NCBI GenBank assembly: GCA_964016885.1
Contig: OZ024742.1
Location: 10,168,001 to 10,232,000 of the forward strand
DNA: 64,000 nucleotides
Origin: Eledone cirrhosa
Taxonomy: Eukaryota
Reading direction: 5' to 3'
The first letter of the stretch is position 1. Each line of letters opens with the position of its first letter. Under the pieces are notes generated by a model, which saw nothing but the letters and a program-made list of their open reading frames with translations, had not been told where the DNA came from and made no database searches. The position numbers were made by a program, and so were the translations under genes. Below, piece by piece: positions 5,171 through 59,731 of the stretch.

Positions 5171-5542
5171 GTGTTGATAGTATTCTGTAATGGTTCTGGT
5201 GTTGGTAGTAGTGTTGTTGGGGGTATTGATGTTAGTGGTAGTCTGTGTTGGCGGTGATTGTAGTTATGGTAATGTTAGTGCTGTTGGTGCTAATGTTAAA
5301 TCTTCTAGCATTACCTCTCTCTCCAAGCCATAAGAAGTATTCTAGTAAAACTGACCAGCTATGTAAGGTTTCATTAAATATCAGCCACCAATAACTTTTC
5401 TATTTTTCTATTTTCTTGCTTCAATCAATTAATAACTCTCTTTTCTTTCTTTCTTTGTCTTTTGTAATTTTAGTCATATTATTCATGTGTTATCAATATT
5501 GATAATAATATGAATAATATGACTAAAATTATTGATAATAAT

Positions 5543-14116: not shown

Positions 14117-15365
14117 AGGGGCTCATCATAGAAATAGACCCAAATAGGAAGGTAGTTAACTTCCTGTACCACCCTAAACCTGAACACCGAGCAATACTAC
14201 CCCTACCACAAGCCCAACGAGAAACTCGTATATGTTAACGCCAAATAAAACCACCCTAGATCCATAACCAAGGCAGTGGTGAAGAGTGTCTCGGACAGGA
14301 TCTCCAGCCTGTCCGCAAGTAAGGAAATATTCAACAACCACGCGGAATATTACAACGCAGCTCTAAAGAAGGCGGCACATGGACAAAATATAACATATAG
14401 TCCGAAAAGCCGGGAGGTGGATAGCCCAACAGACACCCACAACCGCGTTGCCAGAGGGGGGAGGGCGAACCCTAACAATACAGGCAGAGCAGAATCAAAT
14501 AGGCACCATGTACCAGACACCACCACACGGGCGGGGGGGGGACTAGTGCGCTTGACCACGAGATGGAGCACAATATGAGTAGCAGTCTCAGGCGTGACGC
14601 TAACTACCCCAGGACGGACAACCCCAACCGCAGGACACGTGGGGGGGGGGAACGGGCGACCCCCCATGATGGATCTCCCGGGGAGGACAACAACCACCCC
14701 ACAAATCCGGGCCGCGAAGATAACAAAAAGTGTAGAGCCCAAAAGGGAAGCAACAGTGCGGAAACCACCAGCAACCCAACAAATCTCCAACAAATCACGA
14801 AGGCCCCAACCCACACATATAGGAGGAGACACCGAAAAATCACGTGGTACAACCCACCCTACTCAGCGGCCCTAAATAAAACCTTGGCCCGATTATTCTT
14901 TGGAGCACTTGACAAATGCTTCCCGAGGGATCACAGATACCACAGGATCTTCAACAGACACACTGTGAAGCTTTCGTATTCCACCACGAGAAATTTGGCC
15001 CAACACATAGCTAGCATCAACAGAAGTAGGCTTAAAAACCACACACAACCAGAAGATGGCAATACAAACACTCAACAGAACCATGTGAAAGGAGGGAAGG
15101 GGGGACCCAGAGCCCACCCAAGAAACACAAACAGACCCAAGGACCCCCCACCGAGCATGGGGGAAGACCACATGTAACACATAATGAGAACCCTAATCTA
15201 GGCACACAGAGGCCGACCACCCTCTGCAACTGCAGAAACCCCGAATCATGCCCCCTTGATAATGAATGTCTCAAGAAGAACCTAGTGTACGGTTGTAGGG
15301 TTAAAACCCCAACTCCGAACACCTCTACATAGGATCCACATCAACGAGCTTTAAGGACCGCTGGT
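14117..15365 (+). mobile_element. Inverted copy of Penelope-like element 2 (right arm), ending at the 60-bp satellite
   Basis: Near-identical reverse complement of 12937-14103; ORFs 14276-14578 and 14563-15177 mirror the left-arm ORFs. Confidence 0.92.
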
Positions 15366-17905
15366 GTAACATATGTCTATATATGTCCCTATATTGTTGT
15401 TGTTGTCTATGTTATTGTCTCAGGTGTAACATATGTCTATATATGTCTGTATATTATTGTTGTTGTCTATGCCATTGTCTCAGGTGTAACATATGTCTAT
15501 ATATGTCTGTATATTGTTGTTGTTGTCTATGTTATTGTCTCAGGTGTAACATATGTCTATATATGTCTGTATATTGTTGTTGTTGTCTATGTTATTGCCT
15601 CAGGTGTAACATATGTCTAAATATCTCTGTATATTGTTGTTGTTGTCTATGTTATTGTCTCATGTGTAACATATGTCTATATATATCTGTATATTGTTGT
15701 TGTTGTCTATGTTATTGTCTCAGGTGTAACATATGTCTATATATGTCCTTATATTGTTGTTGTTGGCTATGTTATCGTCTCAGGTGTAACATATGTGTAT
15801 ATATGTCTGTATAATGTTGTTGTTGTCTATGTTATTGTCTCAGGTGTAACATATGTCTATATATGTCCCTATATTGGTGTTGTTGTCTATGTTATTGTCT
15901 CAGGTGTAACATATGTCTATATATGTCTGTATATTTTTGTTGTTGTCTATGTCATTGTCTCAGGTGTAACATATGTCTATATATGTCCCTATATTGGTGT
16001 TGTTGTCTATGTCATTGTCTCAGGTGTAACATATGTCTATATATGTCCCTATATTGGTGTTGTTGTCTATGTCATTGTCTCAGGTGTAACATATGTCTAT
16101 ATATGTCCCTATATTGTTGTTGTTGTCTATGTCATTGTCTCAGGTGTAACATATGTCTATATATGTCTGTATATTGTTGTTGTTGTCTATGTCATTGTCT
16201 CAGGTGTTACATATGTCTATATATGTCCCTATATTGTTGTTGTTGTCTATGTTATTGTCTCAGGTGTAACATATCTCTATATATGTCCCTATATTGTTGT
16301 TGTTGTCTATGTTATTGTCTCAGGTGTAACATATGTCTATATATGTCCCTATATTGTTGTTGTCTATGTTATTGTCTCAGGTGTAACATAACTCTATATA
16401 TGTCTGTATATTATTGTTGTTGTCTATGCCATTGTCTCAAGTGTAACATAAGTCTATATATGTCCCTATATTGTTGTTGTTGTCTATGCCATTGTCTCAG
16501 GTGTAACATATGTCTATATATGTCTGTATATTGTTGTTGTTGTCTATGTTATTGTCGCAGGTGTAACATATGTCTATATATGTCTGTATATTGTTGTTGT
16601 TGTCTATGTCATTGTCTCAGGTGTAACATATGTCTATATATGTCTGTATATTGTTGTGGTTGTCTATGTTATTGTCTCAGGTGTAACATATGTCTATATA
16701 TGTCTGTATATTGTTGTTGTTGTCTATGTTATTGTCTCAGGTGTAACATATGTCTATATATGTCTGTATATTGTTGTTGTTGTCTATGTTATTGTCTCAG
16801 GTGTAACATATGTCTATATATGTCCCTATATTGTTGTTGTTGTCTATGTTATTGTCTCAGGTGTAACATATGTCTATATATGTCCCTATATTGTTGTGGT
16901 TGTCTATGTTATTGTCTCAGGTGTAACATATGTCTATATATGTCTGTATATTGTTGTTGTTGTCTATGTTATTGCCTCAGGTGTAACATATGTCTAAATA
17001 TGTTTGTATTTTGTTGTTGTTGTTTATGTTATTGTCTCATGTGTAACATATGTCTATATATGTCTGTATATTGTTGTTGTTGTCTATGTTATTGTCTCAG
17101 GTGTAACATATGTCTATATATGTCCTTATATTGTTGTTGTTGTCTATGTTATTGTCTCAGGTGTAACATATGTGTATATATGTCTGTATATTGTTTTTGT
17201 TGTCTATGTTATTGTCTCAGGTGTAACATATGTCTATATATGTCCCTATATTGGTGTTGTTGTCTATGTCATTGTCTCAGGTGTAACATATGTCTATATA
17301 TGTCCCTATATTATTGTTGTTGTCTATGTCATTGTCTCAGGTGTAACATATGTCTATATATGTCCCTATATTGGTGTTGTTGTCTATGTCATTGTCTCAG
17401 GTGTAACATATGTCTATATATGTCCCTATATTGTTGTTGTTGTCTATGTCATTGTCTCAGGTGTAACATATGTCTATATATGTCTGTATATTGTTGTTGT
17501 TGTCTATGTCATTGTCTCAGGTGTTACATATGTCTATATATGTCCCTATATTGTTGTTGTTGTCTATGTTATTGTCTCAGGTGTAACATATGTCTATATA
17601 TGTCCCTATATTGTTGTTGTTGTCTATGTTATTGTCTAAGGTGTAACATATCTCTATATATGTCCCTATATTGTTGTTGTTGTCTATGTTATTGTCTCAG
17701 GTGTAACATATGTCTATATATGTCCCTATATTGTTGTTGTTGTCTATGTTATTGTCTCAGGTGTAACATATGTCTATATATGTCTGTATATTGTTGTTGT
17801 TGTCTCTGTTATTGTCTCAGATGTAACATATGTCTATATATATGTCTGTATATTGTTGTTGTTGTCTATGTTATTGTCTCAGGTGTAACATATGTCTATA
17901 TATAT
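15363..17905. repeat. 60-bp minisatellite array, about 42 copies
   Basis: Unit CAGGTGTAACATATGTCTATATATGTC(CC/TG)TATATTGTTGTTGTTGTCTATGTTATTGTCT; aligns column-wise with the 60-base lines; one 3-bp deletion near 16360. Confidence 0.98.
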
Positions 17906-22091: not shown

Positions 22092-22549
22092 ATTTATCGT
22101 GTTTAAAGTATTCTAAATTGTGACTTTATATTATATACAGAAAACAACAGATAGGGTCAATGGATTATCTCCCTTGGTTATGTCCTGTCACCAATGTCGT
22201 TCAGTATGATATTATAATATTAAATTATTGTGTACAGTTCTTAGGTGCACGACATCTTATCAAAGGTGCATGTACAGTACATAGAATAATATACAAATGT
22301 CAGGGAAGTAAATATTCTAACAAATTACACATTTAAAAATAGAAACAGTTATTTACATTATTAGAGCCAGGATCTATGTTTTTCATCCTTCTGAGATTAA
22401 TAAATTAAGTATTGGTATTGATGTAAAACAGGTTGGGTCCCAACACAATAAAACCAATAAATGAAATCAATAACAAAAAATATTCCCAAGAGTATCACAT
22501 ATGCATATTTATAGATTCATAACCAGGTATGTGTGTAAATTGATAGATA

Positions 22550-22998
22550 TGTTTCTTTTTATTTGCCACCAGGGCATCAAAAAGTGGGACAAGTACAATG
22601 GGGGGAGTTTACACAAAAAGGCGAGTAAAGAAAACAAATAACAAATATAAAATTAACAATAAAGTCCTCAATAGGGAGGGGGCGTTTGGGAGGTCGCACA
22701 CACACCCGAAAAAAGTGTGCAACCCCTTCTCCTCAGGAGCACAGAGAGAGGGTGCTCCCTCGTTCCTTCCTCTTTTCCACCTACAGGCTGATGTAAAGAA
22801 AAGGCCCATTCACACGGGCCATTCTCGCCACTTTCACCCACCTTTCATAAAAACGACTGGGGTGCAGCACCTCTCTCTCCATCCTGATCCTTCTTCCGAA
22901 ATGATATCGGAAGAAACGGATCAGTTGTTGGCCAGAGAGAAAGGTGCCTGACCTGAGTCCTTTCAGACGCGTCCACCATACAACCTCTTGGATATTAC
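22550..22998 (-). mobile_element. Tx1-clade LINE copy 1 (3' fragment) with 15-bp TSD
   Basis: ORF2 C-terminus (EVVWWTRLKGLRSG...) plus 3' UTR; GTAAATTGATAGATA duplicated at 22535-22549 and 22999-23013. Confidence 0.9.
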
Positions 22999-23038
22999 GT
23001 AAATTGATAGATAGATAGATATATAGATAAACATAGAC

Positions 23039-23106
<68 letters not shown>

Positions 23107-23110
23107 GGAC

Positions 23111-23146
<36 letters not shown>

Positions 23147-23174
23147 GGACAGATAGATAGATAGATATATAGAT

Positions 23175-23207
<33 letters not shown>

Positions 23208-23259
23208 TAGATAGCTGGACAGACAGACAGATAGATAGCTGGACAGACAGACAGATAGA

Positions 23260-26200
23260 TATCTTTCTTTATTTGCCACAGGGGCGTACAAAAATGGGAC
23301 ATTACAATACGTGAGGGCGGGGGTTAACATTAATAAATAACAATAAACTATATATAATAAAATAACAATTGAAATCCCCCGTAGGGGGGAACGTTACTAC
23401 AGGGTTGTTTTACACCCCGTGGATAGAACAACCCTCAACGCCAGGAACACGTTTTGTAGGTGTTCCCGTCTTCCCTCTGTTTATCTTCCTCAACCTACAG
23501 GTTTATATACAGAGAAGGCGCATTCACTCGGGCCATTTTTGCCACATTCACCCACCTTTCAGCGAATTTACTGGGGTGTAGCACCTCTCTCTCCACTCTC
23601 ACCTTCCTTCTGAAGTGATACTTAAAGAAGGGCATAAGTTGTTGTCCGGAGAGAAAGGTGTTTGCCCTCAGTCCTTTTAACCTCGTCCACCATATTACCT
23701 CTTTCGCCATAGCCACCAGACAGAGGAAAACCGCCTCTCCTTCGTTCTTAAACGAAGGCGGCGGGGTGATCCTCACGATGGACTCGGCTGACAACTGGAT
23801 GCGTCCCACATGTGACAGCAGCTGTTCGACATAATTCCACAGGTCGGTCACCCCTGGGCACTGAACAATTGCGTGCAGAACGGTTTCAATGTCCTGCTCG
23901 CATCTTGGACAGGTCCTTTTGGCAGGATCTCTGCCAGGGCGTCTGTGCCTGTAGATTTTGTCTCGAACTGGTAGAGCTCCTCGGTAGCACTGCCAGGCCA
24001 GAGACCTCTGGAAGTTATCCATAAGCCCTGGACGGAAAGTCCTCCCGAACAGACTGGTCAGCCCGTCCTCCTCGATGCCTAGAGTTTCCCCGAGAACGTC
24101 GTCGCACTTATCCTCCACTAATCCCCTATAGAATGTCAAAGTAGAGTCTCCGCTGATTGCCGTTTCCGCTTGGTAGAGGGCTGTGAGCGTCTGTAGGCAT
24201 TCGAGGTGCCAGGCTCCCATTTTCGGTCTTCGCTTGACCTAGGACTGCAGCTCTGTTAGTGAGACGAGTTGTGGAAGAGCTTGTCTCACAAACGACAGCC
24301 ACACCGGTTCACCGGTCAGAAATACCTGGAGATGGCGTAGCCTCAGCGCATGTTTGCGCATCATCAGCCACGGCCTGCCCAGGTCTCCGTTAGAAGGGTG
24401 TTGACAGCAGATGGATCTCCTCACCAATGGAGCCTGTTTCTTCCAGAGGAACTTGAAGAGTAGGCGTTCCATTTTGGTAAGGTATTCGCGGGGGCAATGC
24501 ACAACTGTCAAGCGGTAGTAGATGACGGACGCTATGTAAGTGTTCGCCACCTCCGCTCGACCTTTCAAGGACAGTTTGCACTCAGCCCACTTCTGGGTGA
24601 GTGCAAACAACTTCGCCGTGACCTCGTTCCACTTCTTGTCCACCTGGAGGTCTGGACCGAACCACACCCCGAGCAATTTCACCGGTCCTTCTGTCCAGCG
24701 TCCAACGACACTGTCGGAAGGCATGGGTTTGCCTCTCCATGTGCCGAGTTGCAAACCGACAGACTTGTTTGGGTTTAGTCTTGCTCCTGTCGACGTTTCG
24801 TATTCCTGTAATAGGTTGCCGATTACACTGATTTCCGAGGTTTTCGACACCATTACGGTTATGTCGTCGGCATAGGCTGTCGCCGCTTTCCGCAGTCCTG
24901 GTTCGATCGGGATGCCATGCAACAGCTCCAATTTCCGCAGTAACGGCTCGAGAGTCAGTACATACAGAATGGAGGAGAGAGGGCATCCCTGACGGATGAA
25001 ACGCATGATTTGGAATGGCTCTGATAGGTATCCATTCCCCTTGATTGCCGAGCAGATGCTGGTGTGCATGACAGCGATCCAGCCTCTGAAGACGGGACCG
25101 AAGCCGGCCGCCTTGAGAACTGCTTCCAAGTATTGATGGTCGACCCTATCAAATGCTTCAGACTGATCTAAATTGATCAGAGCCCCACCAAAGCCATGTT
25201 TACACCCTACCCTCTCTATGATGTATCGCATGAGGTGGAGGTTGTCGTGTATGGACCTGGTCGGGATTGCACACATTTGGGCTTCCCCTACCAGGTTCTC
25301 GACGACAAGCGCCAGCCTTGCTGCTAACACCTTGGCCAAAATCTTTAACTCTGTGTTGAGTAGAGCTATGGTCCTGAAATTGCTTATCTCATCCCCTTTG
25401 TTCTCATCTTTCATGACCAGCGTTACTACGCCTCTGCCTACAGAACTGGGAATCCTCCCGTTCTGCTGCCAGTTGCAGTAAACCGCTTCGAAGACGCCAG
25501 AGAACAAGTCTGGCATGCCTATATAAAACTCATAGGGTAGACCATCTAAACCGGGTGATTTGCGTTTCCCGCAGCGGCCTAGGGCATCTTCTATTTCTCC
25601 CGCTGTGATCAGCCTTTCGCAACTCTCCGCATCCGTGCTCGAGAGTCGCGGTACGCCGTCGAGGTAGTAGCTGAAGTCCATCACCTCGCTAGATGTACCG
25701 CTTTGCCCGAACAGTTGTGCAAAATGCTGCTGGAAGGCCGCGCACATCTGCTTGGATTCAAGTATAATGCGTCCATCTTTGTCTTGCAAAGACCGAATTG
25801 TGGATTTGTTGCCACTTTTCGCCTCTGCCACTCGGGCCCAGCTAACAGCTTTGGCTCCCTCGTTTCTTAGAGCACGTGTTCTAATTCTGACAATACAACC
25901 TTCGTGTTTCATGTTGAAGAACTGGTCTAGTGCCGTTCTCGCCGCTAGCACGTCAGCTGTACTGCCATTCCTAAGTGCCTCTTCTATTTTAGCTACCAGT
26001 TCCTTTTCAGTTTTGTTTTTTTCTAAAGCTACTTCCTTGCTAAATGCTATTGATTCTATTCTAATTGCTCTCTTGAGAGGGCTCCACCACCTGTTGTTGA
26101 CGATCGCCCCCGTCAACTGGCACTTAACTAAGGTGCTAATCCGTTTACTGTAGGCCTTACGCGCCGGGAGCGACATGTTTCGCTTCCAGTATCCGGGTCC

Positions 26201-27247
26201 CTGTCTATGTGTTCTATCAAGGTTGACTACGCAGGTGACTAATTTGTGGTTTGAATAGGCAACCATGTGCATTTGTGGACAGCTTAATGTTTCCTTATCA
26301 TTCTGTCTAATTAAAAATCTATCTAAATACGATCTAGAAGACCCAGTGCGGTTGCTCCACGTCCACAGTGGTGCACTTGGGAAGTCTAGTCACTATCTAT
26401 CAGCCAGTTGGAATTGGCTGATGAGATTTTTGAGGCTATTACACCCCCCTCTATTATCACAAGCTCCTACATAGTCCCAACGTGCGTCTAAGATGCCATT
26501 TCAGTCCCCCAATAACACTAAGGAGCGAGATGTTTCTAGGAATGGCTCCAGACGCTTTAAGAACTCTGGTCGCGATGTCCCAGTTGGGGCATATACGGCC
26601 ACCAGTCTGAAAGCTCCACTTTCACTACCATTCACGTCCAGGACCACCAGGCTGCCCTCCGGGTCAAAGTGAATCGTCTATATTTTGAGATCCAAGTTTT
26701 TTCGAAACAGAACAGCAACTCCCCCTCCACCACCTGGCTGACAGAGAGATGCGTAGATCTCAAAATAATCGAACATGGGGGTTAGCTGCTGCTTGTCGTG
26801 AATTCTGGACTCGGTGATGGTTATCACATCTATACAATGTGACCTGAGATCACTTAAAACCTGGCCCTGTTTCCATGACATGCCCAGGCCACGTACATTC
26901 AAACATCCAGCTTGTATAGTCGCCATGTTGGTGAAGAAGAGTTAAGGAGAGAAAAGGCAGGAACACTTACCTTTTCGTTTCCTGGAGGTCGGGTTGTTCG
27001 ATCTCCATGTCCAGATTGGTGGTGTTTGGGGAGGGAGGGAATCATTTTAGCAGAACACGGTTGAGGGGCTTTTGGCAAGGGGGGCCCACATCATGTCGGA
27101 GGTTCTCTTTTAAAGTTTGATAAGTTTGAGGTTTGGTGGTGGGTCGTTGTTGGGGAAAGTTTTCCCTTCCGTTTGTATTGTGGGGTCCTTTCGGACAGTT
27201 TCCACCTGTTCTTTGTTTCTTGTTTTTATGTATGTGTAGTGTGTTTT
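23260..27247 (-). mobile_element. Tx1-clade LINE copy 2 (divergent subfamily): end of ORF1 plus complete but disrupted ORF2
   Basis: ORF2 from ATG 26926 (GCLNVRGL, APE endonuclease), RT (PGLDGLP, RQGCPLS, YADD) and C-terminal CPRC...H...C to about 23495, with in-frame stops; bounded by GATA/GACA runs. Confidence 0.93.
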
Positions 27248-27309
27248 ATAGATAGACAGACAGACAGATAGATAGACAGACAGACAGATAGACAGATAGC
27301 TGGACAGAC

Positions 27310-27384
<75 letters not shown>

Positions 27385-27386
<2 letters not shown>

Positions 27387-28448
27387 TGTTTCTTTTATTT
27401 GCCACAAGGGCATCAAAAGTGGGACAAGTACAATGGGGGGAGTTTACAAAACAAGGCGTCCTCAATAAGGAGGAGGCAATAACAATATATAAAAATAAAA
27501 TAAAATATAACAAAAAATAGAATTATAACAAAATCCTCAATAGAGGATTTTGTTATGAAATATAACAAAAAATAGAATTATAACAAAATCCTCAATAGAG
27601 GATTTTGTTATAAAATATAACAAAAAATAGAATTATAACAAAATCCTCAATAGAGGATTTTGTTATAAAATATAACAAAAAATAAAATTTATAACAAAAT
27701 CCTCAATAGAGAGGAGGCGCCTTGGGGGGTCGCACACACCCCCGAAAAAAGTGTGCAACCCTTTTCCTCAGGAGCACAGAGAGGGGGTGCTCCCTCGTTC
27801 CTTCCTCTTTTCCACCTACAGGCTCATGTAAAGAGAAGGCCCATTCACACGGGCCATTCTCGCCACTTTCACCCACCTTTCATAAAAACGACTGGGGTGC
27901 AGCACCTCTCTCTCCATCCTGATCCTTCTTCCGAAATGATATCGGAAGAAACGCACCAGTTGTTGGCCAGAGAGAAAGGTGCCTGACCTCAGTCCTTTCA
28001 GACGCGTCCACCATACAACCTCTTTCGCCATGGCTATTACGCACAGAAACACCGCCTCTGCTTCATCTTTGAAGGGGGGAGGCGGCTTGATCATTACAAT
28101 AGACTCGGTGGTCAACCGGATCGGTCCCACCCTTGACAGCAGTTGTTCGACATAGCCCCACAGATCGGCTACGCCCGAGCAGTGTACCAATGCGTGTGCA
28201 ACGGTTTCCTCGTCGCACACGCATCTGGGACAGATCTTTTTGGCGGGGTCCCTACCCGGGCGCCCGTGTCTGTAGAGCCTTTCTCGAACGGGTAAAGCTC
28301 CTCGGTAGCACTGCCAGGCCAGGGACTTCTGGAAGTTGTCCATAGGTCCCGGGCTGAATGTCCTACCGAACAGGCCGGCCAGTTCGTCCTCCTCCATGTC
28401 TAGGGCTTCTCCGAGGGCGTCGTCGCACCTGCTGCGTACCAGCCCTCT

Positions 28449-28449
<1 letters not shown>
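27385..28449 (-). mobile_element. Tx1-clade LINE copy 3 (5'-truncated)
   Basis: ORF2 C-terminus nearly identical to copy 4; (GATA)n on both sides. Confidence 0.92.
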
Positions 28450-28483
<34 letters not shown>

Positions 28484-28747
28484 TGTTTCTTTTATTTGCC
28501 ATCAGGGCATCAAAAGTGGGACAAGTACAAAGGGGGGAGTTTACACAAAAAGGCGTCCTCAATAAGGAGGAGGCAATAACAAAATATAAAAATAAAATAA
28601 AATATAACAAAAAATAAAATTTATAACAAAATCCTCAATAGAGAGGAGGCGCCTTGGGGGGTCGCACACACCCCCGAAAAAAGTGTGCAACCCTTTTCCT
28701 CAGGAGCACAGAGAGGGGGTGCTCCCTCGTTCCTTCCTCTTTTCCAC

Positions 28748-31700
28748 CTACAGGCTTATGTAAAGAGAAGGCCCATTCACACGAGCCATTCTCTCCACTT
28801 TCACCCACCTTTCATAAAAACGACTGGGGTGGAGCACCTCTCTCTCCATCCTGATCCTTCATCCGAAATGATATCGGAAGAAACGGACCAGTTGTTGGCC
28901 AGAGAGAAAGGTGCCTGACCTCAGTCCTTTCAGACGCGTCCACCATACAACCTATTTCGCCATGGCTATTACGCACAGAAACACCGCCTCTGCTTCATCT
29001 TTGAAGGGGGGAGGCGGCTTGATCATTACAATAGACTCGGTGGACAACCGGATCGGTCCCACCCTTGACAGCAGTTGTTCGACATAGCCCAACAGATCGG
29101 CTACGCCCGAGCAGTGTACCAATGCGTGTGCAACGGTTTCCTCGTCACACACGCATCTGGGACAGATCTTTTTGGCGGGGTCCCTACCCGGGCGCCCGTG
29201 TCTGTAGAGCCTTTCTCGAACGGGTAAAGCCCCTCGGTAGCACTGCCAGGCCAGGGACTTCTGGAAGTTGTCCATAGGTCCCGGGCTGAATGTCCTACCG
29301 AACAGGCTGGCCAGTTCGTCCTCCTCCATGTCTAGGGCCTCTCCGAGGGCGTCGTCGCACCTGCTGCGTACCAGCCCTCTATAGAATGTTGCGGTGGAGT
29401 CTCCACTGATAACCGGATCCGCCTGCCAGAGGGCGGTGAGCGCCTGGGCACACTCAGTGTGCCAGGCGCCCAGTTTTCTCGGTCTTTGCTTGACCCAGGA
29501 TTGCAGCTCGGTGAGTGAGACGAGTCTGGGAAAGGTTCGTCTCACAAGCGAGGCCCACACCGGTTGACCGGTGAGGAATACGTAGAGGTGCCGTAGCCTT
29601 AATGCGCGTTTACGCATCATTAGCCACGGCATCCCAGCCTTGCTTTCGAAGGGTGTTGACAGCAGATGGATCTCCTCACCATAGGAGCCCGCCTCTTCCA
29701 AAGGAATTGGAAGAGTGCGCGCTCCATCTTGGTGAGGGTTTCCCTTGGGCAGGGCACTACGGTTAGGCGGTAGTAGATGACGGACGCTATGTAGGTGTTC
29801 GCCACCTCCGCCCGACCTTTCAGGGATAGTTTGCACCTGGCCCACTTCTGGGTCAGTGCAAACACCCTGTTCGTAACCTCCGCCCAGTTTTTCTCCACCT
29901 GGAGGTCCGGTCCGAACCAGACCCCGAGCAACTTCACCGGGCCCTCCGTCCAGCGTCCGACGACGCCATCGGAGGGCATCGGTCTGACCCTCCACGTGCC
30001 GAGTTGCAAACCGATCGACTTGTCCCGGTTCAGCTTAGCCCCTGTGAACCTTTCGTACTCCTCCAGTAAGGTGCCGACCGCCTCGATTTCGGAGGCCGTC
30101 GACACCATTACTGTCACGTCATCGGCGTAGGCCGACACCGCTTTCCGCAATCCCGGTTCCAAAGGGATGCCCTGCAACAACTCCAACTTCCGCAGTAGTG
30201 GCTCGAGAGTCAACACATACAGAAGGGAGGAGAGAGGGCACCCTTGTCGGATGGACCGCGCGATTTTGAACGGCTCCGAGAGGTAGCCGTTCACTTTGAC
30301 CCTAGAGCAGATGTGGCTGCTGTGCATGACATTGATCCAGCCCCTGAAAACGGGTCCGAACCCTGCCGCTGCTAGCACCGCATCCAGGTAACTATGGTCG
30401 ACCCTATCGAATGCCTTAGATTGATCCAAGTTGATCAGGGCCCCACCAAAGCCGGGTTCGTTCCCAACCCTCTCTATGATGTATCGCATGAGGTGGAGGT
30501 TATCGTGGATGGACCTGGACGGGATAGCACATGTCTGCGCATCTCCCACCAGGTTGCCCAGGACAAGCGCCAACCGCTTTGCTAGCACCTTGGCCAAAAT
30601 CTGTAACTCTGTATTTAGCAGAGTTATGAGCCTGAAGTTACTTATTTCGTTCCCCTTGTTCTCGTCCTTCCTCACTAGCGTGACTACGCCCTTGGTCACA
30701 GTACAGGGAATTCTCCCGTTCTGTTGCCAGTTGCAGTAGGCCGCCTCGAGGAGATCGGGGAACAAGTCCGGCATAGCTAGATATAATTCGTAAGGAAGAC
30801 CATCGAGACCCGGGGATTTGCGTTTGCCGCATTGGCTCAGCACGTCCTCTATCTCAGCGGCCGAAATCGGCTCCTCGCAGGACTTCGCCTCCTTGTCCGA
30901 GAGGCGCGGCAGGCCGTCGAGGTATGGACCGAAGTCCACGTTCCCAACCGGCTCCCCGCCCCTCCCGAACAGTCGGGCAAAGTGCCTTTGAAAGGCCTCA
31001 CACATCTGCTTAGGCTCAAGAATCGCCCGTCCATCCAGGTCTCGCAAAGACCGGATGGTGGATTTAGTTCCACTGTTGGCCTCTGTCACGCGGGCCCAGC
31101 TAACAGCTTTGGTCCCCTCGTTCCCTAGAGCACGTATTTTACTTCGGACAACGCAACCTTCGTGCTTCGCGTCGAAAAACTGGCTCAAAGCCGTTCTCGA
31201 CGCTAGCACTCTGGCCACGTCGCCGCTTCTAAAAGCCTCTTCTACTCTATCTATTAGCTCCCTTTCCTTCCTATTCCTATCCGCAGCTAGAACCTTACTA
31301 AATTCTATCGAGACTACTCTAATCTCTCTCTTTAGAGATACCCACCACCTGCTGTTGACGATCGCTCCAGTCAACCGTTCCTTAACTAACGTACTAATCC
31401 GATCCCTGTAGGCTCTACTTGCCGGCAAGGACAAGTTGAGCTTCCAGTAACCGGGGCCCTGTCTATGCGTTCTATCAAGGTTGACCATGCAGGTCACCAA
31501 CTTGTGGTCTGAATAGCCAACCATGAGCATTTCTGGACAACTTAAAAAGTCCCTGTCCTTATTTCTAACTAAAAATCTATCTAGGTACGACCTAGATGAT
31601 CCGCTGCGATTTGACCAAGACCAGGTTGGCACCGTCGGAAAATCTAGTCGAAATCTATCGGCCAGATCAAATCGGCCGAGTAACCCCTTGAGGCTTTTGC

Positions 31701-32184
31701 ACCCCTCTCTATCGGGACATGCCCCTGCATAGTCCCAACGTGCATCCAGGATACCATTCCAATCCCCCACTAAAAGCAGGGAACGGGACGTCCCTAGAAA
31801 AGACTCCAGACGCTGGAAAAAGTCGGGCCGCTCAGTCCCAAAAGGGGCATATGCGGCTACCAGCCTAAAGGCTCTACCTTCACCACTGCCAAGGTCCAGC
31901 ACAACCAGTCGACCCCCTGGGTCCAAGTGAACTATCTGTGTTGCAAGGCCCATATGTTTTTGCAGCAGAACGACAACCCCACCCCCACCTCCGGGCTGAC
32001 AGAGAGATGCGTGCATCTCAAAGTCGTCGAAGGTGGGGGCTAGCTGTCGCATGCTGCTGATCCGGGCATCGCAGATAACCATCACATTTATAGATTGTGA
32101 CCTGAGGTCATTTAGAAGCATTGCTTGCTTCCAAGACGAGCCCAGGCCACGCGCATTTAGACACCCTACTCTTAGCACAGCCAT
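28748..32184 (-). pseudogene. Tx1 ORF2 (APE endonuclease + reverse transcriptase + C-terminal zinc motif)
   Basis: VGCLNARGL, LVGDWN, SYLDRFL, SDHKL; PGLDGLPYE, LDQSKAFDRVDH, RQGCPLS, YADDV; CPRC...ETVAHALVHC. One frameshift near 29640 and a premature TAG at 28952. Confidence 0.93.
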
Positions 32185-32208
32185 GTTGGTGGTAAGGAGA
32201 AAAGGCAC

Positions 32209-33854
32209 TTACCTCTCTGCGTCCCGGGAAACGGGCCGCTCAATTTCCATGCTGGTTGGGGATGGGTTGTTGGGTGGGGTGGTGGTTTGTGGAAGTGAAG
32301 GGGCATCGGTGTGTTGTGGGTTTGGGGTGTTTGTGGTTGAGTGGGTGTCTGGGTGGGGTGGGGTGGGGGGTGAATTTTTTTAGGAGGACGCGGTTGATTG
32401 GTTTGGCGCAGGGGGGGCCCACGTCCTCCGTGAAATTTATTTTCAGTGTTTTGTACAAGTGCATTGGGACTTTTATCATTTTTAAATGAGGTAGTCCCAC
32501 AGCAGTTTTAAAGTTAGGCCCTTCAGTGGACCGAAGGGTTTGCTGAAATTGTTTTCCGTAATTCTTTGTTGTCTGTGTTCATGTATGTATATTGTAAGGT
32601 CTTTTTTTGTGTAGCAGATAGTGTTGTGTGACAGGGAGGGGTGGTTTGTGTGTAGTTTGTGTTCTCTTGGGGGAGGGTTAAAGTTAACATGTGTGTCTGT
32701 GGTGCGTCTCCTCTTCTTTCTTTTTATTTGTTGGAAGGGATCTTTTTCGTCTTGCGACGAAAGGGGTTCGTCTTCCTTGTTGGGTGGGAGGGGTATGTTT
32801 TCTGGTAGTGTTTGCGGTGTGTGTGTTTTTGTATTTGTTCTGGGTGGGGAGGGATTGGGTGGGACGGTATTCTGTGTTATTTTTTCACGTGTTTGTTGTT
32901 GTTGTTGTGGTGGTGGTGGTGGGGTTGTTGGTTTTTGTTGTTGTTGTTGTTGTGGTTGTTTTTGTTGTTGTTGTTGGGGTGGTGTTGGTGTTGGTAGCAG
33001 TGTTTTTTTCTGTGTGAGCTGGGGACAGGCAGCCCTCAGGTGACCTCTATTGCCACAGAGGTAACAGGAGGGACGCCTACCCTCCACAATAATGTTGAGG
33101 TGGGTACGGTCATCCAGCATGACGCGCTCAGGGATTTGGGCGATGCGTTCTGGCCTTATTTGGGTCAGAACTTCGATGCTCGTTCCACTGAACGCGTCGC
33201 CGGATGCCTTCCCTATTGAAATGAGGTTGTCCTCGTCTAAATTGAGGAAGCCGGTTAGTAACCACCAGTAGTTTATGTTTGGGGTGATGGTGGTTATCCA
33301 TATCCTCTGGGTTTTTTTACCCATGTAGGTGGGGAAGAAGGTGTAGTGTGTGGACCGAATTGGCGACACAGAGTATTTTTTCGCCGCCAATTCGTCTTTC
33401 ATCAATATGGATAAACTCCCATAGAGTTTATCCTTTTGTATAAAAGTGATATCTCTCATCGCGTCTTTCAAGACTAACTGAATTTCGGCTTGAGATGGTT
33501 GCGCTGGTTTTTTTGTTTTATTTAAAATTGTTCGGAATACGACAGTTCGTAATTCCGTCTGTTTTTTTAGTTCTGGAGGTGAATGTATAGAAAACGAACC
33601 GTTTTCGCCAAAAGATACATATTTCTTGGCTTTTTCCAGCATTTCTTTTGCTTTTGAAATGTCTTCAAGCACATAAGCGACTGATAATTTAGCCGTTTGT
33701 GCAAAAGATATTTTGTTTTCGCTTTGGATTTTAGTATTGTTTTGTTTCTCGTCGTTTGAGTTGTTTTCATCTTTGTTGTTGTTGTCTTTCTCGTTTGGTG
33801 TGTGGATACTTGTGACGTTTGTGTTGTTGTTGTTTTTGTTGTCTTTATTGTTGC

Positions 33855-33885
<31 letters not shown>

Positions 33886-34108
33886 GTTTTCAAATTCTTG
33901 TGTAGTTGTGGCTACATCTAGTGGTCGGTCAACAGGTGAAGACAATTCTTCCTCTCTCTGACCTCTGCCTTTGGCATCTGCTGCTGTGACAGTGGCAGGG
34001 GGAAGCTGTGAGTATGACTTCCCCTTTCCTTCTTTGATTGATGGTGAAGATGCTTCGCCATTTTTCTCAAAATAGGGTTTTTCGAAGTTTTTCGAAAGAT
34101 AAAATGTT
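32209..34108 (-). pseudogene. Tx1 ORF1 (gag-like, zinc knuckle), frameshifted near the 3' end
   Basis: CYLCGNRGHLRAAC (CX2CX4HX4C) in ORF 32482-33945; N-rich and Q/P-rich tracts; frame open upstream to about 34108 without an ATG; C-terminus MEIERPVSRDAER* at 32209 has counterparts in copies 2 and 6. Confidence 0.8.
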
Positions 34109-34310
34109 CACAATACTATTTCGCCCAAAGGCGCAGAATATTTTGAGAGACCGACCAGATCAAAATTTGACCTGGCAGTCCCTCTACAAAATGGTACAAA
34201 AATGAAAGTTTACAGTTTACAATTTCCGTATGAATTTAAACAAAAACTTACCGAGCGAGCTCAGCACATGTGTCCATCGTAAAGAGAGATAGATAGATAG
34301 ATAGATAGAG

Positions 34311-34373
<63 letters not shown>

Positions 34374-34418
34374 CAGAGACATATAGAGACAGACAGAAAG
34401 ATAAACACAAATAGACAG

Positions 34419-35820
34419 ATATGTTTCTTTATTAGCCACAGGGGCACAAAAGAAGGGGACAAATACAAAGGTGGAAGTTTACATACAATACAAACGTGTA
34501 AAATACTATCACAAATGCAACTTAAAAATTAATCGATTTTCCCCAATAGCGGGAGACATTACATATGGGTAACGCATACCCCCGAATAAAAAATGTGCAA
34601 CCCTCATCTCCAGGAGTACGAAGTGTTTGTACTCCTTTCCTCTCCTCCTCTTTTTCCTCAACCTACAGGCTGATATAGAGAGAAGGCCCATTCACTCGGG
34701 CCATTCTCGCCACTTTCACCCACCTTTCATAAAACTTGCTGGGGTACAGCACCTCTCTCTCCATCCTGATTCTTCTTCCAAAGTGGTATTTGAAAAAAAG
34801 AATCAGTTGTTGACCGGAGAGAAAGGTGTCTGACCTCAGCCCTTTCAGCCTTGTCCACCATACAACCTCTTTCACCATAGTTATCACACAAAGGAAAACC
34901 ACCTCTCCTTCGTTTTTGAAAGAGGGTGGGGGTTTGATCATGACAATGAAATCGGTGGTCAACTGGATTGGTCCCACCCGCGACAATAGTCGTTCCACAT
35001 AGCCCCACAGGTCGGTGACGCCCGGGCAGTGTATGAATGCGTGCGCAACGGTTTCTTCGTCTCGCACGCACCTCGGACAGGTCTTTTTTGCAGGGTCCCT
35101 GCCCGGGCGCCCATGTCTGTAGAGCTTGCCTCGAACTGGTAGAGCTCCTCGGTAGCACTGCCAGGCCAGGGACTTTTGGAAGTTGTCCATCGGTCCCGGG
35201 CGGAAGGTCCTACCGAACAGACTGGCCAGTTCGTCCTACTCTACGCCCAGAGTTTCACCGAGCACGTCGTCGCACTTGCTGCGGATCAACGCTCTATAGA
35301 ATGAAGACGTGGAGATGCCGCAGCCTGAGCGCGTGTTTGCGCATCGTCAGCCACGGCATCCCCAGCCCTGCGTTGGAAGAGCGTTGGCAGCAGATGGATC
35401 TCCTCATCAAAGGAGCCCGCCTCTTCCAAAGGAATTGGAAGAGCGCGCGCTCCATTTTGGCGAGCGTTTTGACTGGACAAGGCACGACGGACAAGGCACG
35501 ACGGTCAAGCGGTAGTAGATGGCGGACGCTATAAAAGTGTTCGCCATCTCCGCTCGACCTTTCAAGGATAGTTTGCACTCGGCCCCATTCTGGGTGAGTG
35601 CAAACACCTTGGCCGACACCTCGTTCCAGTTCTTCTCCACCTCGAGGTCCGGACCAAACCAGACTCCGAGAAGCTTTACCGGTCCTTCCGTCCAGCGTCC
35701 GACGACGCCATCGGAAGGCATCGTTTGCCTCTCCACGATCCGAGTTGCAAACCGATGGACTTGTCCCGGTTCAGCTTCGCTCCTGTGAAACTTTCGTATT
35801 CCTTCAGTAAGGTGCGGAAT
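34419..35820 (-). mobile_element. Tx1-clade LINE copy 5 (third subfamily; 5'-truncated, internal deletion near 35300)
   Basis: ORF2 C-terminal ORFs 34663-35190 and 35407-35736; distinct 3' UTR; GATA runs on both sides. Confidence 0.9.
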
Positions 35821-35821
35821 G

Positions 35822-35889
<68 letters not shown>

Positions 35890-35892
<3 letters not shown>

Positions 35893-38628
35893 TTCTTTTT
35901 ATTTGCCACCAAAGGAATTGGAAGAGTGCGCGCTCTATTTTGGCGAGCGTTTCCCTTGGGCAAGGCACAACGGTCAGGCGGTAGCAGATGACGGACGTTA
36001 TATAAGTGTTCCCCACCTCCACCCGACCTTTCAGGGACAGTTTGCACTCGGCCCACTTCTAAGTCAGTGCAAAGATCCTGTCGTTACCTCACCTTAGTTC
36101 TTCCCCACCTGGAGGTCTGGTCCGAACCAGACCCCGAGCAACTTCACCGGGCCCTCCGTCCAGCGCCCGACGACGGCATCGGAGGGCATCGATCTGCCCC
36201 TCCACGTGCCGAGTTGCAGACCGATCGACTTGTCCTGGTTCAGCTTAGCCCCTGTAAACCTTTCGTACTCCTCCAGTAAGGTGCCGATCGTCCCGATTTC
36301 CGAGGCCGTCGAAACCATTACTGTTACGTCATCGGCTTAGGCCGACACCGCTTTCCGCAATCCCGGTTCCAACGGGATGCCCTGCAGCAACTCCAACTTC
36401 CGCAGCAGTGGCTCTAGAGTCATTACATACAGAAGGAAGGAGAGAGGGCACCCTTGTCGGATGGACCGCGCGATTTCGAACGGCTCCGAGAGGTAGCCGT
36501 TCACCTTGACCCTAGAGCAGATGCGGCTGCTGTGCATGGCAGTGATCCAGCCCCTGAAAACGGGTCCAAGGCCTGCCGCCGCTAGCACCGCATCCAGGTA
36601 ACTATGGTCGACCCTATCTAACGCCTTAGATTGATCCAAGTTGATCAGGGCCCCACCACAGCCAGGTTCGTTCCCAACCCTCTCTATGATGTATCGCATG
36701 AGGTGGAGGTTGTCGTGAATGGACCTGGATGGGATAGCAAATGTCTGCGCATCTCCCACCAGGTTGCTCACGACAAGCGCCAACCTCTTTGCTAGCACCT
36801 TGGCCAAAATCTGCAACTCTGTATTTAGCAGAGTTATGGGCCTGAAATTATTTATATCGTCCCCCTTGTTCTCGTCCTTCCTCACTAGCGTGACTACGCC
36901 CTTGGTCACAGCACAGGGAATTCTCCCGTTCTGTTGCCAGTTGCAGTAGGCCGCCTCGAGGAGATCGGGGAACAAGTCCGGCATAGCTAGATATAGTTCG
37001 TATGGAAGACCATCGAGACCCGGAGATTTGCGTTTGCCGCATTGGCTCAGCACGTCCTCTATCACAGTGGCTGAAATCGGCTCCTCGCAGGACTTCGCCT
37101 CCCTGTCCGAGAGACGCGGCAGGCCGTCGAGGTATGGACCGAAGTCCACTTCCCCAACCGGTTCCCCGCCACTTCCGAACAATCTGGCAAAGTGCTTTTG
37201 AAAAGCCTCGCACATCTGCTTAGGTTCAAGGATCACCCGTCCATGCTGGTCTCGCAAAGACCGGATAGTGGATCTACTCCCTCTTTTGGCTTCTGTCACG
37301 CGGGCCCAGCTAACAGCTTTGGTCCCCTCGTTTCCCAGAGCACGTATTTTGCTTCGGACGATGCAGCCTTCGTGTTTCGCGTCGAAGAACTGTCCCAAGG
37401 CCGTTCTCGACGTTAGCACTCTGGCTACGTCGCCGCTTCTAATTGCCTCTTCTACACTATCTACCAACTCCCTTTCTATTTGAGGCTAACTCCCTACTAA
37501 ATTCTATAGAGACTACTCTAATCTCTCTTTTGAGAGATCCCCACCACCTGCTGTTGACGATGGCGCCCGTCAACCGCTCCTTAACTAAAGTGTTAATCCG
37601 GTCCCTCTAGGCCTTACTTGCCGGTAAGGACAAGTTGAGCTTCCAGTAACCGGGTCCCTGTCTATGCATTCTGTCAAGGTTGACTATGCTTGTGGTCTGA
37701 ATAGCCAACCATGAGCATTTTTGGACAACTTAAAAAGTCCTTATCCTTATTTCTAACTAAGAACCTATGTAGGTACGACCTAGATGATCCGCTGCGATTT
37801 GCCCAAGTCCAGGTTGGCGCAGTCGGAAAATCTAGTCGATATCTATCGGCCAGGTCAGATCGACCGATTAACCCTTTGAGGCTGTTACACCCCTCTCTAT
37901 CGGGACCATCCCCTACGTAGTCCCAACGTGCATCTAGGATACCATTCCCCACTAATAGCAAGGAGCGGGACGTCCCTAGAAAAGCCTCCAGACGATGGAA
38001 GAAGTCCGGCCGCGTTGACCCGAAAGGGTCGTAGACGGCTACCAGCCTAAACGCTCCGCCTTCACCACTGCCAAGGTCCAGAACCACTAGTCGACCCTCC
38101 GGGTCCAAATGTACCGTCTGTGTTGCGAGACCCAGATGTTTTTGCAGCAGAACGACAACCCCACCCCCACCTCCGGGCTGACAGAGAGATGCGTGCATCT
38201 CAAAGTCATCAAGGGTGGGGGCCCGCTATCGCACGTTGCTGATCCGGGCCTCGCAAATAAACATCACATCTATACGTTGTGACCAGAGGTCATTTAGAAG
38301 CATTGCTTGCTTCCAAGTTGAGCCCAGGCCACGCGCATTTAGACAGCCTACTCTTAGCATAGCCATGTTGGTGGTGAAGAGAAAAGGCACTTACCTCTCT
38401 GCGTCCCGGGTATCGGGCTGCACAATTTCCATGAGAGTGGGGGTGGGTTGTTGGGTGGGGTGGTGGTTTGTGGAAGTGTAGGGGCATCAGTGTGTTGTGT
38501 GGTTGGGGTGTTTGGAGTTGTGTGGGTGTTTGGGGAGGGGGTCGGCAAGTTTTTTAGGAGGACGCGGTTAATGGGCCCGACGCAGAGGGGGGGGGGGGGC
38601 GCACGTCCTCTTTAAAGTTGTTTTTTAT
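35890..38628 (-). mobile_element. Tx1-clade LINE copy 6 (end of ORF1 plus most of ORF2; about 1.2 kb deleted just inside the 3' end)
   Basis: ORFs 36337-37467 and 37674-38198 parallel copy 4; the terminal 20 bp (ATTTCTTTTTATTTGCCACC) join directly to mid-ORF2 (AAAGGAATTGG). Confidence 0.9.
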
Positions 38629-38644
38629 TAGATAGATAGATAGA

Positions 38645-39473
38645 TATGTTTCTTTTATTTGCCACTAGGGCATCAAAAGTGGGACAAGTACAAAGGGGGG
38701 GGGGGGAGTTTACACAAAAAGGCGTCCTCAATAAGGAGGAGGCAATAACAAAATATAAAAATAAAATAAGATATAACAAAAAATAAAATGTTTAACAAAA
38801 TCCTCAATAGAGAGGAGGCGCCTTGGGGGGTCGCACACACCCCCGAAAAAAGTGTGCAACCCTTCTCCTCAGGAGCACAGAGAAGGGGTTCTCCCTTGGT
38901 CTTTCATCTTCCTCACCTATAGTCTGATGTAGAGTGAAGGCCCATTCACACGGGCCATTCTCGCCACTTTCACCCATCTTTCATAGAAACGGCTGGGGTG
39001 CAGCACCTCTCTCTCCATCCTGATCCTTCTTCCGAAATGATATCGGAAGAAACGGACCAGTTGTTGGCCAGAGAGAAAGGTGCCTGACCTCAGTCCTTTC
39101 AGACGCGTCCACCATACAACCTCTTTCGCCATGGCTATTACGCACAGAAACACCGCCTCTGCTTCATCTTTGAAGGGGGGAGGCGGCTTGATCATTACAA
39201 TAGACTCGGTGGTCAACCGGATCGGTCCCACCCTTGACAGCAGTTGTTCGACATAGCCCCACAGATCGGCTACGCCCGAGCAGTGTACCAATGCGTGTGC
39301 AACGGTTTCCTCGTCGCACACGCATCTGGGACAGATCTTTTTGGCGGGGTCCCTACCCGGGCGCCCGTGTCTGTAGAGCCTTTCTCGAACGGGTAAAGCC
39401 CCTCGGTAGCACTGCCAGGCCAGGGACTTCTGGAAGTTGTCCATAGGTCCCGGGCTGAATGTCCTACCGAACA
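38645..39473 (-). mobile_element. Tx1-clade LINE copy 7 (5'-truncated)
   Basis: Nearly identical to copies 3 and 4 over the ORF2 C-terminus; GATA runs on both sides. Confidence 0.92.
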
Positions 39474-39502
39474 TTAGATAGATAGATAGATAGATAGATA
39501 GA

Positions 39503-39718
39503 TATATTTCTTTATTTGCCACAAGGGAGCACAAGAAAAGGGGACAATACAAGGACACATGCCACGGATTTTACATACAGTCGGGTAAAAAAATGTTAAC
39601 ATACAAATTCAACAATCGAAATCCCCAACAGGCGGGAGGCGTTACAAATACTCCGTAGATAGAACAACCCTCAACTCCAGGAGCGTGTTGTGCAAGTGCT
39701 TCTTTCTTCCTTTTGTGG
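39503..39718 (-). mobile_element. Tx1-clade LINE copy 8 (3' UTR only, related to copy 2)
   Basis: Same terminal motif TTTCTTTATTTGCCACAAGGG; GATAGAACAACCCTCAAC.CCAGGA shared with copy 2 (about 23420-23450); followed by GACA/GATA and (GA)n. Confidence 0.75.
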
Positions 39719-39799
39719 ACAGACAGACAGATAAATATAGACAAACAGACATACAGATAGACAGACAGATAGATAGATAAATAGATAGATAGATAGATT

Positions 39800-39875
<76 letters not shown>

Positions 39876-49135: not shown

Positions 49136-49239
49136 TGAGAGGAGATGTAAAACAAAGTCAATATTAAATTATCTATTAGAAGCGTAAATTTTTTATGTTG
49201 TGAGTAATTTGTTTGGTAAATGGAGGTTGTGTCTAGACT

Positions 49240-52200: not shown

Positions 52201-52262
52201 TTAGTGGAGGGTGGGGTATAGTGTAGTGGAGTGGTGTAGTGTAGGGTGGGGTATAGTGTAGT
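49240..52262. repeat. Degenerate G-rich minisatellite (about 25-35 bp, GAGGGTGGGGTATAGTGTGGTGGAGTGGTGTAGTG)
   Basis: Recurring GGGGTATAGTGTGGTGGAGT core with variable numbers of 5-bp subunits. Confidence 0.92.
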
Positions 52263-58836: not shown

Positions 58837-59731
58837 CTAGCAGTAAAGCCCGGCGTTGCTCGGGGTCGCTCAGTAGCTGTGTTAAAGTTACAATGTTAAG
58901 TTTCTTTATTGGCTTAAAAACTGTAGTGTCTACTGTGCAGACTTGCATGTGGTGTTTTTGATTAATATTCCCTCAACCAACAATATGCCTTATGAAGTTA
59001 AGAAAACATAACGATAACCCGAATGTTATAACAAAAGAGGATGCTGGGGATAGAAACTGCACTGGTTATTTATTAACAAAGATCGAAAATGTAAACACTG
59101 CAACGCAGAGAAAAACATTAGCGTAACCAAATTATCAGTTATGTCTGTCTGCACGCCTATATCACCTCTCTGCACGACTGTCTGTCTGCACGCCTATATC
59201 ACCTCTCTGCACGACTGTCTGTCTGCACGCGTATATCACCTCTCTGCACGACTGTCTGTCTGCACGCCTAACGACGAAATATTTGCTTGTTTTACGTAGT
59301 CTTTAAATAGACTTGTTTTCAAGTAAAAATATTGTTTTAAAATGCTTTTAAATGGAAATGAAGCAAAACGGAAGCTTAGTGTTCGAACTGATGAATTTTG
59401 CAGGTCAATATTTTGCTGGCTCGACAACTGTTCGTGTATTGTGTTAATGTCATTTTAAACGCTGAGAAAGCCAGCGTAATTTTTTACGTAAGACGCACAA
59501 TGTAAACAGAACAAAGGGAAATAACTGATAACTTACGCTCAAAAATCGATACATTATATTCGATTTCGTCACATAGGGTGGGTCAATTTGAAATATTTTT
59601 TTTCCGATGTCTTCGCTAGGGCTCAATGTACAAGTATAGCAATTTCGGTGCAATTCCGTCAGAGATTCTAAGAGGAGATGTGTGCCAAAAATCGATAGAC
59701 AGACAGACAACCACAGTTTTATATATATAGA
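58837..59731 (-). mobile_element. Non-autonomous Helitron (895 bp)
   Basis: Minus strand reads A|TCTATATATATAAAAC ... CCCGAGCAACGCCGGGC-TTTACTG-CTAG|T: 5' TC, subterminal GC hairpin, 3' CTAG, inserted between A and T with no TSD. Internal tandem of about 38 bp at 59143-59270. Confidence 0.85.

Follow-up and report, generated by a model that had tools for sequence, protein, structure and literature searches.

A LINE lineage of Eledone cirrhosa that favors GATA repeats as insertion sites and stacks there head to tail

The window analyzed here, a 64-kb stretch of Eledone cirrhosa DNA (assembly GCA_964016885.1, contig OZ024742.1, positions 10,168,001 to 10,232,000), contains eight 3′ termini of one family of long interspersed nuclear elements (LINEs) within positions 22550-39717, all of them on the minus strand. 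We found that the GATA sequence bordering these elements is their insertion target and not a tail. The preference for it is strong yet not strict, and the actual site is a short AGATA/ATATA motif, which GATA repeats supply in bulk. The array itself consists of eight copies that were inserted independently of one another. Head-to-tail arrays of the family are common in the genome, and this eight-deep array is the long end of the same rule.

GATA as target and not as tail

One 16-nt terminus of the family has 4061 exact matches genome-wide, while its reversed control has 3. It is preceded by ATA-NN in 3827 of the 4061 matches (94%), by GATAGATA-NN in 2466 (61%), by TATATATA-NN in 267 (7%), and by AATAAT-NN in 25. 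For a second variant of the terminus, 13,502 matches were found, and among the first 30 of these, 22 follow AGATA, 4 follow ATATA, and 4 follow other sequences. In a background of 40 evenly spaced 10-kb stretches (400 kb), GATAGATA occurs at 63 positions and TATATATA at 9144, which makes the latter ~145-fold more common. The resulting per-site preference for GATA over (TA)n is near 1300-fold, a value good to an order of magnitude only, given the few GATA runs in the background. Raw DNA reads from another sample under the same species label include 1041 whose consensus beyond the terminus is (ATAG)n; therefore, the junction is not a product of assembly. A LINE is counted as target-specific when one sequence type makes up >20% of its flanks (PMC4494074), and GATA repeats adjoin 2466 of the 4061 termini and 41 of 71 5′ ends of truncated copies in the sample described below.

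To that sample belong the first 100 terminus matches on contig 1, taken with 8 kb each. Five places without an element body were dropped (L058, L113, L128, L129, and L130), leaving 95, and six whose 5′ ends did not resolve were set aside, leaving 89. The 3′ junction is AGATA in 81 of the 95 copies, ATATA in 12, and another sequence in 2, and no TATC run, as expected of the opposite orientation, was found at any sampled junction. Among the 89 resolved copies, 71 are 5′-truncated; at their 5′ junctions we found at least two GATA units in 41, (TA)n in 7, another duplication in 11, and nothing recognizable in 12, whereas (GATA)2 or more occurs in 26 of 10,800 background windows. An exact duplication of 7-20 bp that ends in GATA or TATA adjoins the terminus at 19 of 20 informative sites, and targets with a single GATA keep a single GATA at the 3′ junction (L038, L039, L045, L066, L074, L076, L095, and L103). 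A search for duplications displaced from the terminus by an added GATA run gave no convincing case among 18 re-searched copies. Because the 19 exact duplications abut the terminus without added repeat, GATA is the target and not a tail.

The competing explanation is that the elements insert nearly at random and bring a (TATC)n tail, and that arrays arise because the tail draws later copies or because only such sites are tolerated. It would account for 7 of 38 truncated copies that have at least two GATA units at the 3′ end and none at the 5′ end. However, truncated copies could not have carried a 5′ repeat, yet 41 of 71 show one, and the eight single-GATA loci would not be expected of a tail. 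Largely refuted by the exact duplications and by the absence of displaced ones, this explanation appears to us highly improbable.

The original prediction, made from the sequence of the window, had proposed GATA as the target and a fixed orientation relative to the repeat, and both proposals are borne out by the junction counts and duplications. Of the outcomes that it had named as contrary, neither a majority of copies with GATA at the 3′ end only and unique 5′ flanks nor mixed orientation relative to the repeat was found, and the part of the literature that was checked gave no earlier description of the family. Its claim of (GATA)n specificity needs softening to a strong preference (61%), since 7% of termini follow TATATATA and the remaining sites are single AGATA/ATATA motifs, satellites, and unique DNA. 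Similarly, the avoidance of (TA)n that it had read from the window, where indeed no copy lies outside the array, does not extend to the genome, given the 267 termini in such sequence.

Several further observations concern termini and junctions. Insertions of just 16-27 nt of the terminus, some of them GATA-flanked on both sides, represent extreme 5′ truncation (L058:801-816, L128:801-818, L249, and L256). Copies at L033, L065, L074, L075, L090, and L091 lie at GATA-, TATA-, or GGTA-like positions of minisatellite units, and further diverged families with the same terminus motif stand mostly after AAT or GAT repeats (L113, L129, L130, L244, and L259-L266). The longer GATA run is on the 5′ side in 21 of 29 truncated copies, a weak tendency confounded by later slippage and shared spacers, and a G follows the duplication at 4 of 9 non-repeat sites, too few for a claim of enrichment. 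An association of the terminal dinucleotide AG with (TA)n, apparent in the sample (5/13 versus 7/82, P = 0.01), was not upheld among the listed genome matches, where AG, counted by eye, ends 17 of 100 termini after TATATATA-NN and 12 of 100 after GATAGATA-NN. In other organisms, relatives were detected in four sequencing runs by their 3′ region, a match that does not show the flanks, and GATA-like loose ends at the terminus occur in one to three contigs per run.

The array as a stack of independent insertions

The copies of the array are separated by GATA or mixed GATA/GACA spacers of 16 to ~260 nt, and their pairwise identity, from ~75% to 98%, places them in at least four sequence classes. 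They have eight different 5′ ends. Copies 3, 4, 6, and 7 are each nearer to copies elsewhere than to their array neighbors: copy 3 is 99.5% identical to L071 versus 98.3% to copy 4, copy 7 is 98.9% identical to L065 versus 96.8% to copy 3, and copy 6 is 94.9% identical to L054 versus 88.9% to copy 4. Since all copies checked are more similar to copies elsewhere than to adjoining ones, we conclude that repeated insertion built the array. A 15-bp duplication with seven unique bases flanks copy 1, and the array as a whole matches the double-insertion pattern described in Drosophila (PMC5932611). Local tandem duplication or an assembly error might be invoked instead, given that copies 3, 4, and 7 are 95.5-98.3% alike across their common 3′ part. 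Such an origin is at odds with the eight 5′ ends, the 75-98% identities, and the best matches elsewhere; an assembly error is also at odds with the presence of terminus-GATA junctions in raw reads, although the reads do not span the array itself. We judge it very unlikely.

No opposite-strand terminus and no terminus outside the array was found in the window, and matches to copy 4 (blastn) and to unbroken genomic open reading frames (ORFs) 1 and 2 (tblastn) were likewise confined to the array. None of the array copies has poly(A). The original prediction of eight minus-strand copies from at least three subfamilies, free of poly(A) and regenerating their target by insertion, thus stands, with the target-site duplication and growth by repeated insertion behind its last part. 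It had also described a GATA/GACA run at both ends of every copy, a description that needs some qualification: copy 1 has just two GATA units at its 3′ end, and these lie within the 15-bp duplication, part of which is unique flank (22535-22549 = 22999-23013); copy 5 is preceded by GACAGATA; and copy 8 ends in GACA.

From left to right, the array opens with the left copy of this duplication (22535-22549; seven unique nucleotides and two GATA units), followed by copy 1 (22550-22998, minus strand, as are all copies), a 5′-truncated element of 449 bp, and by the right copy of the duplication (22999-23013) with a GATA/GACA spacer (together 22999-23261). Copy 2 (23262-27250) belongs to a diverged subfamily, ~75% identical to copy 4, and retains an entire ORF2 with stops, while most of its ORF1 is gone. 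Beyond a GACA/GATA spacer (27251-27386) lies the 5′-truncated copy 3 (27387-28449), whose 3′ untranslated region (UTR) has a 55-bp tandem expansion (27500-27711), and a GATA spacer (28450-28483) leads to copy 4 (28484-34283), which is broken but, at 5.8 kb, is the only full-length copy of the array, with 97.0-97.6% identity to full-length genomic copies. A GAGA/GATA/GACA spacer (34284-34421) precedes copy 5 (34422-35821), 5′-truncated, of another subfamily (81-82% identical to copy 4), and with an internal deletion. After a pure GATA spacer (35822-35889), copy 6 (35890-38630) consists of ~19 terminal nt, a junction to element position ~1215, and then the region from endonuclease (APE) to reverse transcriptase (RT), 89% identical to copy 4. 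Four GATA units (38631-38646) separate it from the 5′-truncated, 830-bp copy 7 (38647-39476), and seven units (39477-39504) separate the latter from copy 8 (39505-39717), a 213-bp 3′ fragment of a further subfamily that terminates in GACA and is 82-84% identical to longer copies in L110, L073, L057, and L048. That copy 8 is a short interspersed nuclear element was ruled out, as its relatives run on into a LINE body. The array closes with a GACA/GATA run followed by (GA)n (39718-39800).

Similar stacks occur throughout the sample. A family neighbor lies within 300 bp of 45 of the 95 copies, and every neighbor with an assigned orientation is co-oriented; reversed family fragments were found only farther off. 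Counted per 8-kb locus, there is a single terminus at 55 loci, two termini at 30, three at 7, and four at 3, and no terminus is reversed. At L081-L083 (C1:42.26-42.27 Mb), nothing but duplications (14-20 nt) of a single short GATAGATA site lies between three stacked copies, a case of array growth without a real microsatellite.

Elsewhere in the window, the sole GATA/GACA-type run well outside the array is 16 nt long and has no adjoining element (59694-59709). The window also contains minisatellites with units of 41 bp (~125 copies, 1-5173), 60 bp (42 copies, 15363-17903), and 35 bp, the last G/T-rich (~83 copies, 49239-52259), and a minus-strand ORF (12656-13267) with a weak GIY-YIG match (E = 2.4e−4, below the cut-off), possibly a Penelope-like remnant.

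Element affiliation, the (AAT)n sister lineage, and site choice

The layout of the element is seen in copy 4. Its ORF2 (28751-32184, minus strand) encodes an N-terminal APE domain (32184-31465; PF03372, E = 5.5e−7), RT (~30654-29920; PF00078, E = 6.3e−26), and a C-terminal cysteine-rich zf-RVT domain (~29260-29108; PF13966, E = 8.2e−5, below the cut-off). A one-base loss near 29635 shifts its frame. The preceding ORF1 (32417-34059, minus strand) is interrupted by several indels and has one weak CCHC knuckle (~33069-33019; PF00098, E = 0.0029, below the cut-off); a CCHC zinc knuckle in ORF1 is common in Tx1. In the APE domain of copy 4, Asp replaces a conserved Glu that is kept in 40 of 42 APE domains of the GATA lineage. 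L092, a relative in the genome with unbroken ORFs, comprises 220 nt of 5′ UTR, an ORF1 of 564 aa, an ORF2 of 1145 aa, and ~260 nt of 3′ UTR, in which AATAAA adjoins the end and poly(A) is absent. The young lineage retains 18 full-length copies among the 89, 8 of them with an ORF2 of at least 1100 aa, and dispersed copies are up to 99.8% identical. A 12-mer used to look for full-length 5′ ends lacked specificity, giving 1314 matches compared with 479 for its control. L092 and L063 are 96-100% identical from element position ~2800 to the 3′ end, compared with 66-76% in the 5′ UTR and ORF1 and 88-91% in APE; these young subfamilies are likely a mosaic, produced by recombination or template switching.

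Domain order, 5′ truncation, and target-site duplications of variable length (7-20 bp) support placement of the lineage in the L1 group of non-LTR retrotransposons. A 3′ poly(A) tail is typical of that group without being a strict criterion, and here the terminus directly adjoins the duplication at 19 sites. In a PDB search, the RT matches human L1 ORF2p (E = 3e−40) ahead of R2 proteins (E = 2e−17 or weaker), a coarse comparison because few clades have solved structures. The nearest named protein match is from Argonauta hians (61%). Protein searches and cluster look-ups returned none of the named Tx1 members (Tx1L, Keno, Kibi, and Koshi), the ESM Atlas gave generic APE-RT clusters only, and in a quick RT tree, the lineage groups with unnamed relatives and not with the five plant L1-like proteins. 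Relatives of ORF2 at 42-43% identity (P0003, P0015, P0019, and P0026) fall in clusters of 109-732 members and lie on long contigs.

The background stretches also contain diverged relatives that end in (AAT)n. Their terminus has 9703 matches, 8340 of them after AATAAT-NN and 60 after AGATA-NN. Full-length copies of this lineage have (AAT)n at the 5′ end as well and form tandems, whereas the seven truncated 5′ junctions in view are mixed. On contig 1 of the genome (G000), L201-L216 and L171-L200 include several distinct full-length 5′ ends and tandem pairs ~6 kb apart. The APE domains of the GATA and AAT lineages are ~60% identical. In a quick tree, a single branch with support 99 separates the two classes, and 52 alignment columns are diagnostic of class. 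Among these, position 194, Ser/Thr or Ile according to class, belongs to the segment that aligns with the hairpin loop of the L1 endonuclease, a loop tied to target selectivity (PMC1950540). The quick RT tree divides the classes in the same way, and therefore the APE split does not isolate the endonuclease. Candidate cases of mis-targeting proved to be look-alikes: of 12 AAT-type termini at AGATA, one lacks a body and the bodies of the other 11 are nearer to the GATA lineage, and none of 8 GATA-type termini at AATAAT has a GATA-lineage body.

We consider it fairly probable that copies come to lie at GATA-ending sites in a fixed orientation through a choice led by the endonuclease, which would nick the GATA strand, with some help from short RNA pairing. 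The nick would fall at GAT^A or one base later, the exact bond being ambiguous, and the freed 3′ end would prime reverse transcription on an RNA ending in GAAA-NN; pairing with read-through UAU(C) over 2-4 nt would probably help to hold that end in place. A second nick would fall 7-20 nt upstream, and each insertion would duplicate the site for the next one. Because the duplicated site would keep its polarity, later copies of any subfamily would land head to tail. A T^A nick fits both the GATA and AAT lineages as well as L090, where the last A is not part of the target. The TRAS1 endonuclease likewise nicks T^A, and swapping endonucleases between SART1 and TRAS1 shifts specificity (PMC7265360).

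Several points weigh against this proposal. Target class is tracked by APE, but equally by RT and the 3′ end, and no chimera was found among the 20 apparent cross-class sites. Repeat runs may have grown after insertion, which would inflate the per-site ratio; the sample consists of the first 100 places on one contig, some of them neighbors within the same arrays; and the 20 sites examined for duplications were hand-picked. The 12 truncated copies whose aligned 5′ end shows no repeat and no duplication (one of them an interrupted copy) also count against it. The satellite target at L090 lacks the final A that precedes the terminus; at least that base must therefore have come from the RNA.

The same base would suit a different account, in which a loose endonuclease nicks many TpA steps, only those 3′ ends that pair with read-through (UAUC)n are used, and the target is inherited from the donor flank. 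The ATA that precedes 94% of termini is consistent with it, and short annealing between RNA and target has been proposed for SART1Bm (PMC7265360). Between their 5′ end and the duplication, the full-length copies L092, L107, and L123 have 11-20 extra, partly GATA-like nucleotides, which suggests, weakly given three copies, that transcripts may start in the upstream repeat or include flanking repeat. However, no extra repeat units were copied at the 19 exact duplications, and inheritance of the flank alone would be expected to drift toward (TA)n, which is far more common than GATA but holds only ~7% of copies. The link between AG termini and (TA)n, which the account could have used, was seen in the sample and not in the listed genome matches. 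We regard RNA guidance of this kind as possible but on the doubtful side.

A further conjecture, which we think unlikely, is that one octopod LINE lineage split into tail-less branches owning (GATA)n and (AAT)n, with the address held partly in the read-through repeat at both RNA ends, so that the landing repeat would be heritable without change in the endonuclease. The two branches together have >27,000 terminus matches, and both include young unbroken copies. If the conjecture is true, swapping a few RNA bases would retarget the element.

Relation to known systems

We found no published GATA-targeting LINE family in the literature searched, although Repbase, Dfam, and Tx1 target lists may record one. 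A repeat annotation of Octopus vulgaris reports 13 recently active L1-Tx1 families, and its main text never uses the word "target" (PMC13282606). The lineages described here probably extend the known set of LINE target repeats to (GATA)n and, where APE elements are concerned, to (AAT)n. With endonucleases that are ~60% identical, cleanly separated targets, and unbroken copies, the two lineages make a natural test pair for the share of site choice that lies in the endonuclease and the share that lies in RNA-DNA pairing. In addition, the GATA microsatellites of this genome are active insertion sinks, which bears on repeat annotation and on microsatellite markers.

Microsatellites are the targets of several other APE-type LINEs, among them Kibi on (TC)n, Koshi on (TTC)n, and crocodilian Tx1 families on (TTCC)n and (TTTC)n (PMC4494074, PMC3812793). 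The GATA lineage shares their habit but not their targets: its junctions are AGATA in 81 and ATATA in 12 of 95 copies. On the sense strand, its unit is (TATC)n and that of its sister (ATT)n, neither of which is among the Tx1 targets given in those accounts (PMC4494074, PMC3812793). Waldo on (ACAY)n, Mino on (AC)n, Dong on (TAA)n, and Togen on (TG)n are also non-LTR elements of microsatellites (PMC3812793, PMC4640811), so that TAA repeats already had an occupant in Dong. These elements belong to other clades, including NeSL-related ones, whereas the RT of the GATA lineage is nearest to human L1 ORF2p among solved structures. The clade labels R1 and R4 are found among Waldo, Mino, Dong, and Togen.

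The original prediction had likened the array to those of telomeric retrotransposons, a likeness that holds for structure and not for location: HeT-A/TART and TRAS/SART occupy chromosome ends or telomeric repeats, whereas ~10.2 Mb separate the array from the end of its 379-Mb contig (window at C3:10.17-10.23 Mb of 378.9 Mb), and copies are dispersed along contigs. TRAS1 and SART1, inserted in (TTAGG)n, are also APE elements with a fixed orientation within a short repeat and a short recognition site, but they are telomeric and SART1 has a poly(A) tail (PMC7265360), whereas the GATA array is interstitial with no evident telomere role. Closer in form are the R1 tandem arrays and double-insertion tandems of Drosophila, which are head to tail, with distinct 5′ truncations and duplicated target between copies (PMC5932611). 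The GATA array differs from them in its dispersed microsatellite setting, in the several subfamilies that share one site, and in showing no sign of expansion by unequal exchange. Microsatellite targeting and double-insertion tandems are already known, and the array is explained by these known principles; what the GATA lineage probably contributes is a target repeat that is new for elements of this habit.

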